Position numbers and translations under genes: made by a program
Sequence record: OQ721909
Source of the DNA: Escherichia phage vB_VIPECOOM01
Length of the DNA: 64,000 bases
Strand: one strand, 5' to 3'
The notes under the pieces: model-generated
What the model saw: only the letters and a program-made list of their open reading frames with translations
What the model was told of the DNA's origin: nothing
Databases searched by the model: none
In this document: positions 44,581 to 49,264 of the stretch, one piece after another
Layout of the letters: the number at the start of each line of letters is the position of its first letter
How positions within the stretch are numbered: position 1 is the first letter of the stretch

Positions 44581-44884
44581 TTTCTTCTCGGTTAAATCGG
44601 TGTTTGCAATGACGGCATTTATAACGAAGATTACTAGTCTGCCAATGGACTAATTGAACCTGTTCAGTACCACATTTTGGGCAGTTCGGAACATTCTTAG
44701 AAGCCCTTTCGCGGCGTTCAACCATAACCATAATGGCATCCCAGGCTGGAGGTTTAAAGTCTAGATCGTCACAACCATGAATCTTTCCACGCATTTCTAG
44801 ATCGTCTTCTTCACCTGCCATAATAATTTTAATTAGACTGGAATTACTTGAAGCTGCAATGTCTTCTAATAGACGCTTTTTCAT
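44567..44884 (-). CDS. zinc-ribbon protein (nrdC.2 position)
   Basis: 105 aa; CPKCG...CRHC. Confidence 0.45.
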
Positions 44885-45810
44885 TTCAATACCTCAATAG
44901 CATTACGTAAACCATTTGCTTTTGCATTAAGAGATTTTAACAATTTGGTGTGTTCGGCAATCTGGGCTTCAACTTCAATCAAACGAGCATTGAGATATTC
45001 ACGTTCTTCGCTCAGGTTATCAACCTTTTCTACTTTAGGCTCTTTTACAACTGTCTTATATGTATTAGGGTTCTTCAGTTTAATTAGAATGCGTGAACTG
45101 TATAACATTGAACCATTATTTTCGATTTCGTCATACATTTCTACTACGTCCATGATTTTTAACATCATGCGGAGTTTATAAGATAACGAACGAATAGTTT
45201 TGTTGTGCTTATTAATTTCTCTAGAGTTCATGGTACCGAGATTACGTGAGTAGTAATAAGGAACCTGGATATCAATTGATAATGATGCGTTACCATTACC
45301 GGTTGGTTTGAATACTGCAGTAACCCAATCCTTAACATGAACTGTATTTGTACGGTCATCGCCCGCGGTAAATAGTTTACGAGCATGCTTAAAAAGCATA
45401 TTCACTTGGTCATTGAATTGACAAGCGAATTTATCAGCAAATTTAGTTTCAGGAATGGTAGATAACCAATCAGCCAAATGGGTCTTTTTAACATCGTTAA
45501 CAATAGTAAATTCAACCAAATCAGTTATAGATGTCTCAGATTTAATAAAGCTCGGCTTCATAAAGTTTTTAATGTTATCGCGAGCTACAGTAGAAGATAA
45601 CATACGAGAACGTTTAAACCATTGAAGCAAATTGCCCAACGAATGAGAATAAGCGTTCTGTGTATCTTTACAGATATGATTTTCCTGGCCAACATACTGA
45701 AGGAAATCACGAAGAATATTATTGATTACTGCTCTGTGTCCGATCTGATAATTACGGTGTTTAGTAATAAGACTGTCAAAATAATCAATATAATGTTTAC
45801 GAGTTTTCAT
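44881..45810 (-). CDS. coiled-coil-tailed protein, paralogue family member 1
   Basis: 309 aa; C-terminal heptad-like tail (LIEVEAQIAEHTKLLKSL). Confidence 0.5.
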   Translation of the reverse strand: MKTRKHYIDYFDSLITKHRNYQIGHRAVINNILRDFLQYVGQENHICKDTQNAYSHSLGNLLQWFKRSRMLSSTVARDNIKNFMKPSFIKSETSITDLVEFTIVNDVKKTHLADWLSTIPETKFADKFACQFNDQVNMLFKHARKLFTAGDDRTNTVHVKDWVTAVFKPTGNGNASLSIDIQVPYYYSRNLGTMNSREINKHNKTIRSLSYKLRMMLKIMDVVEMYDEIENNGSMLYSSRILIKLKNPNTYKTVVKEPKVEKVDNLSEEREYLNARLIEVEAQIAEHTKLLKSLNAKANGLRNAIEVLK

Positions 45811-45862
45811 GTTCTTCTCACTTGGTTAATGATTTATACTCCGAGCCATCCTTGGCTTTAAA

Positions 45863-46864
45863 TTACTTAATTAACTGTAAAGCTTGTTCAAGACGATCCA
45901 GGCGATTAACAGATTCTTCCCAAATCCTTTTAGCCTGCTCATATTCTTTCTGCGCTTTATTAGAAATTTCTAGAACTTCTTTATAAGCCTTTTCTAGTGC
46001 AATAACTTCTGGACGAATTTCTACAGGTTCAGGCGAATCATCAAGATTATCCATTAGTTCCTCAAGTGTAATTTCTTCTTTAGGAGTATTCACAATTTCA
46101 TCACATTTTTGTTGGTAAATTTCTTTATCAGTCGGTGAGTACGCACATTTCACTTCACGAAGACTAACTACAATTTTATATCCTTCCCAACCGCATATAT
46201 TCTTAAAAGGATACGTATGAATATTTTCTACTGTTTCCATACAAAGTAATGCGGTTTCTAATTGACGAGTTATAGTGCTAGCAATTGAGAAAAATTTATT
46301 AATATTCCTTTGGTTAGTTTCTGGTGTAAAAAATCCATAATTCACAAAAATAGATACTTTATTTTTATCAAGTTCATATTCTTTTACGATAATCATATCA
46401 GAAGCCAAAGGATGAATTTGACGATAATCGCCATAACATAATTTAGAAGCTGATTTTAAAATTTGCTTTTTGAAAAGCCTGAAATTACTAATCCAACGAC
46501 GAGTAAAAATATTCTCAGGGTCTTCTTTATTATTAAGATGATAAGAATTAACATCACCGAACCAATTATATCCTACTACATCTTTGGTTCGTTTAATTTC
46601 TTTCCCAAAATTACCAAGAATATCTCGATTAACCAAATATGAAAGAAGACGAGACTCTTTAAAGGTTTTCTTGATAACATCTTTATCTACACGACTAGAA
46701 ATTTTACGAATTTCATGAATAAATTTAACAGAAGAAACAAGACTTGCGTCAACACTATTGAGCCATTGATTGATAATAGAAATAACGCTATTTTGGCCAA
46801 ACAATGGTATAGCTTTATCATCAATAACGCTATTGAATGATTTGATATATTCGTTACGAGTCAT
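45863..46864 (-). CDS. coiled-coil-tailed protein, paralogue family member 2
   Basis: 333 aa from ATG at 46864 (GAGGAG SD); shares FxxxL(K/R)xxASxL core and coiled-coil tail with neighbours. Confidence 0.5.
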   Translation of the reverse strand: MTRNEYIKSFNSVIDDKAIPLFGQNSVISIINQWLNSVDASLVSSVKFIHEIRKISSRVDKDVIKKTFKESRLLSYLVNRDILGNFGKEIKRTKDVVGYNWFGDVNSYHLNNKEDPENIFTRRWISNFRLFKKQILKSASKLCYGDYRQIHPLASDMIIVKEYELDKNKVSIFVNYGFFTPETNQRNINKFFSIASTITRQLETALLCMETVENIHTYPFKNICGWEGYKIVVSLREVKCAYSPTDKEIYQQKCDEIVNTPKEEITLEELMDNLDDSPEPVEIRPEVIALEKAYKEVLEISNKAQKEYEQAKRIWEESVNRLDRLEQALQLIK

Positions 46865-46892
46865 ATTAATCTCCTCAGTAGAAAGTAAGAAC

Positions 46893-46922
46893 ATTATACC
46901 ACATCCTTGTGGCAAAGTAAAC
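46893..46922 (-). promoter_or_regulatory. early promoter (near-identical copy of 2418..2447)
   Basis: GTTTACTTTGCCACAAGGATGTGGTATAAT. Confidence 0.55.
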
Positions 46923-47950
46923 TAGTTTAGTGCATTTAGTGCATTGTTCAGTTTAGAACGTTGCTTCGTGAGATTTTTGACTTTTTCTTGAGCTTTTTCT
47001 AGCATCTTTTCAGCTTCTAACACTTCATTAGTTGCTTTAACGAGTTCATCATCTACTGCCTTGATAGACTTCTCAATCGCATCTGCATGCCATTTTTCAA
47101 CAGGTTTAAGACTCGGATTTTCAACAGGAAGAAAATTCACTTTATTGAATTTCCATGCATCCTTATTACCTGAACTATACATCCAAAATTTAGGATCGTT
47201 TGATGAGTAATTGGATAAATTTAAATTTAAGTTATCTTGCACTTCCTGCTTTTTCTCTTGCGTGACTTCGTCCTTTCTCAAAAAATCGTATTTAAATGAA
47301 ACGATCATATCAAGTTCATATGTTGTTGTGTCTAATTTAAATCGTTCGAAATGTTGTGAAATCTTAGACTGAACAGCGGCAACAACATCCATATACTTAA
47401 ATGCTTCTGTCAACTGCGATTTAAGGCATTCGCAAATTGAAAGAGAATTTTTTGTATTAGGTTTAAAGCTAATTCGTGCAGTTCTATTATTTTCTTTTAA
47501 TGGTCTTACTTCCATCTGAAGAGTATAACCATCAAATTTCAGGTTCTTTAAGTTAATATCAGAACCTTTCAATCGACTCGCAGTTGATAAAATTTGCTTT
47601 AATTGTCTACGGAACAGAGCAATAAATCTCCATTCAATACGATAATGATTTGGATTGAAAAATCCAGATGATAAATCGACCTTACTTTGACCAACGCCTT
47701 GAACAAATAAAGGATTTTTATAATCAATAGTTTTACAGAAATCGGTGAGTTGCTCACGAGCAGTCATTTGTGTAATATATCCCGCTTTACTAAAATTACG
47801 CACCCATTCACTGCTATTCGTATACTTAAAGTGATGAATAACACGATTAACTTTATCAGGGTCTAAATTATTTTCACACAAAAATGTCATAACATCACGA
47901 GTATAACTGGCATTACGAACCATATCTTCAATTTGAGAACGAGTTTTCAT
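46922..47950 (-). CDS. coiled-coil-tailed protein, paralogue family member 3
   Basis: 342 aa; same architecture. Confidence 0.5.
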   Translation of the reverse strand: MKTRSQIEDMVRNASYTRDVMTFLCENNLDPDKVNRVIHHFKYTNSSEWVRNFSKAGYITQMTAREQLTDFCKTIDYKNPLFVQGVGQSKVDLSSGFFNPNHYRIEWRFIALFRRQLKQILSTASRLKGSDINLKNLKFDGYTLQMEVRPLKENNRTARISFKPNTKNSLSICECLKSQLTEAFKYMDVVAAVQSKISQHFERFKLDTTTYELDMIVSFKYDFLRKDEVTQEKKQEVQDNLNLNLSNYSSNDPKFWMYSSGNKDAWKFNKVNFLPVENPSLKPVEKWHADAIEKSIKAVDDELVKATNEVLEAEKMLEKAQEKVKNLTKQRSKLNNALNALN

Positions 47951-47958
47951 AGTGTTCC

Positions 47959-48849
47959 TTAAGATTTAAGTAAATCAACAATTTTAATTAACTTTTCACG
48001 CTCAGATTTAGCTTTACTACTCAATCCAGATAGTCTGAAAATTTCATCATCATATTGTTGAATAGAAATATTCAGCTCTTCAATCTGTTTATTAAAATAA
48101 TCAATTTGTTCAGAATGTTTTTCGTTACTACGAACTGGTACAGGTTTCGTAGGCAATTTAGTTGAACTGGATTCATTCGGGCGATAAATTAAAATACAAC
48201 TTGAACCAATAGGGCATTTTGCACCAGATGAATATTCTAATGTTCCAGCTTCTTTTAAAACTTCAAAAGCTAAACAGAGATGATGCCCCATATTAACATA
48301 ATCTGTAGAGTGAGCTCTGATGTAATAATCATCTCCACGAATACTAAATTTAAAGCATTTAAGGTCTTCTGTATTATTGGTCTTAAAAATCATTTGTTTA
48401 TCTAGACCTTTAGCTAATCGAGCACCCAATGCTAATAATCGTCGTTGATTTTCCCACAAATCCGCAATCATTTGGTCGAATGATAATTTCGGCATTAGTC
48501 GACCATAAAGGTCATATCCTTTATTATAATTACGAAGGATTTCACTCGCATTAATGCGAGACAATGCTCCAATTTTATTAAGGGCTTTCATAATGCGATT
48601 AGATAAACTCATTCCAGACCCGTTTGTTCGCTGTAAATGTTTTTCTAATCCAAATCCAATATCAACTTTAAACTTATCTAAAATTTCTGCATGAACATCT
48701 TTGTCGATAACATTCAAATCCAAAGTTGGGTTAAATCTATGAAAAAATTTATCTGGCTCTCCACGGCGAAGTACAGTCCATTCATTCATCATTTTTTTAT
48801 TAACTAATGATTTAATTACTGCATTGACATTATTAATTACTACTGACAT
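47959..48849 (-). CDS. coiled-coil-tailed protein, paralogue family member 4
   Basis: 296 aa from ATG at 48849; same architecture. Confidence 0.5.
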   Translation of the reverse strand: MSVVINNVNAVIKSLVNKKMMNEWTVLRRGEPDKFFHRFNPTLDLNVIDKDVHAEILDKFKVDIGFGLEKHLQRTNGSGMSLSNRIMKALNKIGALSRINASEILRNYNKGYDLYGRLMPKLSFDQMIADLWENQRRLLALGARLAKGLDKQMIFKTNNTEDLKCFKFSIRGDDYYIRAHSTDYVNMGHHLCLAFEVLKEAGTLEYSSGAKCPIGSSCILIYRPNESSSTKLPTKPVPVRSNEKHSEQIDYFNKQIEELNISIQQYDDEIFRLSGLSSKAKSEREKLIKIVDLLKS

Positions 48850-48856
48850 ATTTTCC

Positions 48857-49264
48857 TCACTCAATTTCAATTTTACTAAATACACAGAATATGATTGAAC
48901 AGACTATATAAGCGCCACACACGGATTGAACTAATACCATCCCAAAGAACCAAACAATATTATCAAACAGTGTTTGTTTTACGTCGAAAGGACGTAAACT
49001 TACAGTAATATTATCACCTTTTTCTATTGAAGAATACATCTCTGGGGAAATATATTCACTAAATCTATAACCGTCTTTGAGTTCATATACGGCAATAAAC
49101 GATAAACTAGACCCTTTTCCTTGTGTTCCTGTAATGGTATTAACTACAGTAACATCATAATCTTTATAGTGCATATAATCATTAATTGCGTAATAACCAT
49201 ATGCAACTACTACACATAAACAACATATCAATAAATTCAATCTTTTAATTATCAACTGTTTCAT
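48857..49264 (-). CDS. membrane protein
   Basis: 135 aa with N- and C-terminal hydrophobic helices. Confidence 0.45.
   Translation of the reverse strand: MKQLIIKRLNLLICCLCVVVAYGYYAINDYMHYKDYDVTVVNTITGTQGKGSSLSFIAVYELKDGYRFSEYISPEMYSSIEKGDNITVSLRPFDVKQTLFDNIVWFFGMVLVQSVCGAYIVCSIIFCVFSKIEIE

Follow-up and report, generated by a model that had tools for sequence, protein, structure and literature searches.

Four consecutive minus-strand ORFs in Escherichia phage vB_VIPECOOM01, matching nrdC.3, nrdC.4, nrdC.5 and nrdC.6 of Tequatrovirus phages, are supported by our analysis as four very diverged paralogues of one ancestral gene. We consider it probable that they encode tandem-duplicated, early, non-enzymatic coiled-coil binders that neutralise host immune sensors. 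The window analysed is a stretch of 64,000 nucleotides from record OQ721909, and it is 100% identical to OQ721911.1 (Escherichia phage vB_VIPECOOM03). The array consists of the following genes.

44881..45810, minus strand: nrdC.3 CDS, 309 aa (ORF; phrog_1435 match, E = 2e-114)
45863..46864, minus strand: nrdC.4 CDS, 333 aa, ATG 46864 (ORF and SD; phrog_1435 match, E = 2e-167)
46922..47950, minus strand: nrdC.5 CDS, 342 aa (Pfam DUF7235 match, E = 9e-127)
47959..48849, minus strand: nrdC.6 CDS, 296 aa, ATG 48849 (ORF and SD; phrog_2257 match, E = 4e-152)

The first gene of the array is nrdC.6 and the last is nrdC.3, whose stop overlaps the nrdC.2 start. An earlier note on this DNA had given the span as 44881-48885; its four ORFs stand, but the upstream end does not. 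A start of nrdC.6 at GTG 48885 would overlap nrdC.7, and the SD GAGGA precedes ATG 48849, where we place the start. Identity to the T4 protein is 62% for nrdC.3 and 96% for nrdC.4. Sequence and position identify nrdC.5 as the orthologue of the anti-Dsr1 gene of T4: over 342 aa it shares 95.6% identity with T4 NP_049703, the gene order nrdC.6-nrdC.5-nrdC.4 is kept, and it matches DUF7235 (PF23882) with 423 bits (cut-off 30) along profile positions 1-307 of 307. The Pfam DUF7235 profile has no match in nrdC.3, nrdC.4 or nrdC.6, which are distant paralogues of T4 NrdC.5 falling in PF26897 and PF26899. Many records label nrdC.3-6 as thioredoxin or glutaredoxin. We reject this label, which derives from the gene name nrdC.x; the array proteins match no thioredoxin or glutaredoxin family (Pfam, E up to 1; NCBIfam, E up to 0.1).

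Tandem paralogy of the four ORFs had been proposed in the earlier note, and BLASTP together with the split among family databases looks like a refutation of it. Among the four proteins and four neighbours, BLASTP finds only nrdC.3-nrdC.4 significant (E = 2e-5); these two also share a PHROG (phrog_1435), and their families match in hhalign at P = 5e-12. Pfam and PHROGs distribute the four genes over three distinct families of unassigned function (PHROGs 1435, 2351 and 2257; Pfam PF26897, PF23882 and PF26899). In a family-wide alignment, identity to nrdC.4 or nrdC.5 is 14-21% for nrdC.3, nrdC.4 and nrdC.6. When single families are compared by hhalign, nrdC.6 reaches no significance (P = 0.04 with nrdC.3/4, P = 0.07 with nrdC.5), and a HMMER search of 1.84 billion representative proteins with the nrdC.3/4 profile returned 11 matches, including neither nrdC.5 nor nrdC.6.

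More sensitive profile and structure tests overturn this appearance. The HMMER scan supplied the bridging proteins P0234 and P0227, and the profile comparisons of nrdC.6 became informative only once bridging families had been added. Merged profiles of nrdC.3, nrdC.4, P0227 and Marfa match those of the nrdC.5 group at P = 2e-10 over 227 columns, and still do so with the last 60 aa removed (P = 4.2e-7, score 54). The same nrdC.3/4 group matches merged profiles of nrdC.6, Kanagawavirus and PM2 at P = 2e-8, and at P = 2.6e-6 (score 48.5) with tails removed. We used column-permuted and reversed profiles as nulls; the former score 14 +/- 2.6 (maximum 19) against 49-79 observed, and the tail-less scores lie more than 15 SD above them. 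With tails removed, the direct comparison of nrdC.5 with nrdC.6 gives no significant match (P = 0.036), and the globular part of nrdC.5 is linked to the other three proteins only via merged profiles. Iterative HMM searching, with reversed decoys included, converged on precisely the array members and never recruited a decoy. Neighbouring genes do not match the family profiles; among them nrdC.8, considered as a member, has a helical (coiled-coil) tail too but no profile match. These results suggest uniting the three Pfam families and the three PHROGs in a single clan. A PDB sequence search with the array proteins returned coiled-coil noise only, and weak matches to PHL, Cas6b_C, AAA_23, the XerD N-terminus and surface-exclusion PgrA were rejected as noise or coiled-coil bias far below cut-offs.

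All four proteins have a common architecture, as described earlier, here resolved into a variable N-terminus, two conserved blocks that each form a helix pair, and a heptad tail of 49 aa. The FxxxL(K/R)xxASxL motif on which that description drew is real and corresponds to block 2 of a collinear alignment, conserved in 9/9 sub-families examined. Blocks and tails are located as follows.

45556..45630, minus strand: block 1 (helix pair), nrdC.3 residues 61-85 (alignment)
46601..46675, minus strand: block 1, nrdC.4 residues 64-88 (alignment; model helices 61-69 and 72-84)
47732..47806, minus strand: block 1, nrdC.5 residues 49-73 (profile comparison and alignment)
48520..48594, minus strand: block 1, nrdC.6 residues 86-110 (alignment; model helices 82-92 and 95-107)
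45373..45435, minus strand: block 2, nrdC.3 residues 126-146 (alignment)
46439..46501, minus strand: block 2, nrdC.4 residues 122-142 (alignment; model helices 119-130 and 132-142)
47570..47632, minus strand: block 2, nrdC.5 residues 107-127 (alignment)
48415..48477, minus strand: block 2, nrdC.6 residues 125-145 (alignment; model helices 124-133 and 135-145)
44884..45030, minus strand: C-terminal heptad (coiled-coil) tail, nrdC.3 (heptad statistics)
45866..46012, minus strand: C-terminal heptad tail, nrdC.4 (heptad statistics; AF2 model)
46925..47071, minus strand: C-terminal heptad tail, nrdC.5 (heptad statistics)
47962..48108, minus strand: C-terminal heptad tail, nrdC.6 (heptad statistics; AF2 model)

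The heptad-like tail, put at 40-60 aa in the earlier note, was recovered as the C-terminal 49 aa of each protein, in a single heptad register without a break. The hydrophobic fraction at its a/d positions is 0.71-0.93 versus 0.17-0.23 elsewhere, and between 0 and 38 of 2000 shuffles match the observed heptad value, depending on the tail. A shared KLxxAxxLK motif closes the tail in all four proteins; across the family the tail is a heptad helix of about 50 aa with a terminal [QR]xKLxxA[ILV]xxLK, and L325, A328, L332 and K333 are each kept in 7-8 of the 9 sub-family consensus sequences. These four belong to 12 columns conserved across sub-families (the others being T2, A79, L83, F86, L136, A205, P285 and E291), which are mostly hydrophobic or structural and have no His, Cys, Asp or Ser as in catalytic sets.

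AlphaFold2 models of nrdC.4 (pLDDT 78) and nrdC.6 (pLDDT 77) have the same order of secondary structure from block 1 onward, place blocks 1 and 2 on the same helix pairs, and form the C-terminal region as a single helix of about 50 residues. Secondary-structure agreement on a MAFFT alignment is 0.66 versus 0.22-0.62 in shifted controls, a modest excess on which we place no weight. Both models match BFVD proteins of IME523, PM2, Acj61 and fHyAci03 (E 3e-5 to 6e-8), with Foldseek TM-scores of 0.42-0.49; Foldseek links the two models through these shared intermediates only, and neither directly to one another nor to each other's families. The best explanation is that each protein has a globular alpha/beta domain of about 240 aa followed by a variable linker and a C-terminal coiled coil of about 50 aa. 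Within the globular domain, the N-terminal part would be helical and variable, followed by the two conserved helix pairs and a core of beta-hairpin, helix and beta-hairpin.

It could be argued that not all four proteins are homologous, that a shared coiled-coil tail and similar length mislead, and that only nrdC.3 and nrdC.4 are true paralogues. The BLAST and single-family hhalign results, non-significant for nrdC.6 and weak for nrdC.5, favour this, as do the HMMER scan that missed both proteins and the separation of three families in Pfam and PHROGs. We regard it as largely refuted and highly improbable: merged profiles without tails reach P = 4e-7 and 3e-6, neither the reversed decoys nor the coiled-coil neighbour nrdC.8 were recruited, the two blocks are collinear and occupy the same helix pairs in the nrdC.4 and nrdC.6 models, these two models have structural neighbours in common, and the groups are bridged by single-copy proteins from the syntenic site.

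These single-copy proteins come from other T4-like phages. We compared loci of Tequatrovirus, Dhakavirus/Gaprivervirus, Kanagawavirus, Mosugukvirus, Marfavirus and Lasallevirus (Acinetobacter phage Acj61). Tequatrovirus has four copies and Dhakavirus/Gaprivervirus-type loci have three, Acj61 has two, and Kanagawavirus, Mosugukvirus and Marfavirus have one, directly upstream of nrdC.2. Copy number thus ranges from 1 to 4 and the copies always lie in the interval adjoining nrdC (either immediately upstream of nrdC.2 or between nrdC and nrdC.10), and therefore this is a lineage-specific expansion: a Straboviridae accessory gene, single-copy in several T4-like genera, is duplicated in tandem in the Tequatrovirus lineage. 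The single-copy orthologues (Kanagawavirus IME523 and PEi20, Mosugukvirus PM2, Marfavirus) have the architecture, blocks, C-terminal motif and syntenic slot of the array genes, differing from the Tequatrovirus array in having one copy per genome, and bridge the Tequatrovirus families both by profile comparison and by fold. We considered, and rejected, as further members Acj61 p118 (268 aa) and, in IME523 (Kanagawavirus) and Marfa, the 256-aa proteins encoded upstream of the single copy.

Gene-wide dN/dS is 0.10-0.29 for the array genes versus 0.02-0.05 for nrdC, nrdC.1 and nrdC.8, that is, 4-10 times that of the flanking genes, yet below 1. The diversifying selection suggested earlier is not borne out by these values, and an arms race is not proven. 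The array genes are accessory: the phage can do without them on laboratory hosts, and in nature they recur in frameshifted, fused or deleted form.

One early promoter was located in the array.

46893..46922, minus strand: T4-type consensus early promoter of nrdC.4, GTTTAC-N15-TGGTATAAT (annotated early promoter in related record OL960581)

For nrdC.4 we place the start at ATG 46864, which the SD GAGGAG precedes; the TTG and ATG starts that would lengthen the ORF are located within the promoter. As the earlier note had proposed, this site is a copy of the promoter upstream of the 67-aa rIIA.1 ORF (2418-2447), with 29/30 bases identical, or 33/34 when extended. The accompanying statement that two members have their own early promoter and SD holds for nrdC.4; nrdC.3 has an SD only, with no early-promoter or sigma-70 match in the 52-nt gap upstream.

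For one member, the host-interaction reading is backed directly by experiment. Srikant, Guegler and Laub (eLife 2022; PMC9391042) assigned T4 nrdC.5 an anti-Dsr1 counter-defence role: supplied in trans, the gene allowed a deletion phage to plate again on dsr1+ cells. Within the array this phenotype belongs to nrdC.5 only (T4 allele), and we found nothing beyond that study in the literature on nrdC.3, nrdC.4 or nrdC.6 or on a later nrdC.5 mechanism. Neither Pfam nor NCBIfam gave an enzyme match for any array protein, and no function could be assigned from these two databases or from PHROGs. We describe the proteins as non-enzymatic because the conserved columns hold no catalytic-type set and there is no Pfam or NCBIfam enzyme match.

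In the reading that we favour, the array genes would be expressed early and their products would act without catalysis, binding and neutralising host immune sensors. The nrdC.5 protein would neutralise the SIR2-family NADase Dsr1, and the targets of nrdC.3, nrdC.4 and nrdC.6 would most likely be further defence proteins or further variants of Dsr1. Variable surfaces may confer target specificity, while the conserved tail of about 50 aa is, judging from its heptads alone, most likely a common oligomerisation module. We infer the binding mechanism, the oligomerisation and the anti-defence role of nrdC.3, nrdC.4 and nrdC.6; T4 nrdC.5 could also act indirectly and not by binding Dsr1. T4 nrdC.5 antagonises Dsr1, and therefore the other three are good candidates against other defences. 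We also speculate, more tentatively, about a Straboviridae-wide modular anti-sensor scaffold with an oligomerising tail and a diversifying head. Each Tequatrovirus paralogue might then disarm a different immune receptor, for example members of the Dsr1/Avs7 TPR-sensor family, which sense the major capsid protein, with copy number from 1 to 4 tracking host immune diversity. If so, the tandem array would be an expandable counter-defence repertoire.

Two other accounts of function seem unlikely to us, and about equally so. The four paralogues may be allele-matched inhibitors of variants of Dsr1 (or of an Avs7-type TPR sensor) and not of unrelated defences. The TPR sensor of Dsr1 is common to Avs7 and other effector fusions and forms a large, diverse family (PMC12803255), and the conserved blocks and tail are compatible with one target class. 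However, an identity of 14-21% among the paralogues is far beyond what allele-tracking needs, the single-copy genera carry very different versions of the gene, and a phenotype is reported for nrdC.5 alone. The genes may instead have a housekeeping or host-takeover role, such as an interaction with DNA or with a host or phage machine early in infection, with the anti-Dsr1 effect a side effect or derived specialisation. Retention of a copy in the nrdC-adjacent interval in every T4-like phage examined is in keeping with this, and nrdC.3 residues 30-86 bear a weak resemblance to the core-binding (SAM-like) domain at the N-terminus of tyrosine recombinases (NCBIfam E = 1e-3, Pfam E = 0.07, far below curated cut-offs). 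Such matches are at noise level, however, and the genes are dispensable on laboratory hosts, are often broken, fused or deleted in nature, and evolve several-fold faster than their neighbours.

The majority of the approximately 120 non-essential T4 genes still have no assigned function. Our results unite four T4 genes in one family, of which a proven Dsr1 antagonist is a member. Three hypothetical proteins that often bear the mistaken label thioredoxin thereby become specific, cheaply testable anti-defence candidates. The single-copy relatives carried by phages of Klebsiella, Enterobacter, Edwardsiella, Pectobacterium and Acinetobacter are candidates too. The two helix pairs, the variable hairpins and N-terminus, and the conserved tail provide landmarks for work on how Dsr1 is switched off.

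In the available text of three reports, DSAD1 of an SPbeta-like phage is a small non-enzymatic protein that binds the sensor region of the SIR2-type NADase DSR2 and thereby blocks this defence (PMC10973363, PMC10981675, PMC11087589). Our searches, in libraries that contain no DSAD1 model, returned no match to it. Its likeness to nrdC.5 is one of functional analogy only, the binding of nrdC.5 to Dsr1 being putative. The targets differ (DSR2 and Dsr1), and the same text reports no tandem paralogue array and describes no coiled-coil tail for DSAD1. In T4, the anti-TA island and anti-defence clusters (dmd, tifA, adfA) hold early, dispensable genes that neutralise defences, widen host range and are lost by microhomology-mediated deletion (PMC9391042). 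The nrdC.3-6 genes resemble that island as clustered, dispensable accessory genes with presumed early expression. However, the neighbours in the anti-TA island are unrelated proteins, whereas the nrdC.3-6 cluster is one tandem-expanded family, and as such clearly illustrates how tandem duplication expands a phage counter-defence gene.

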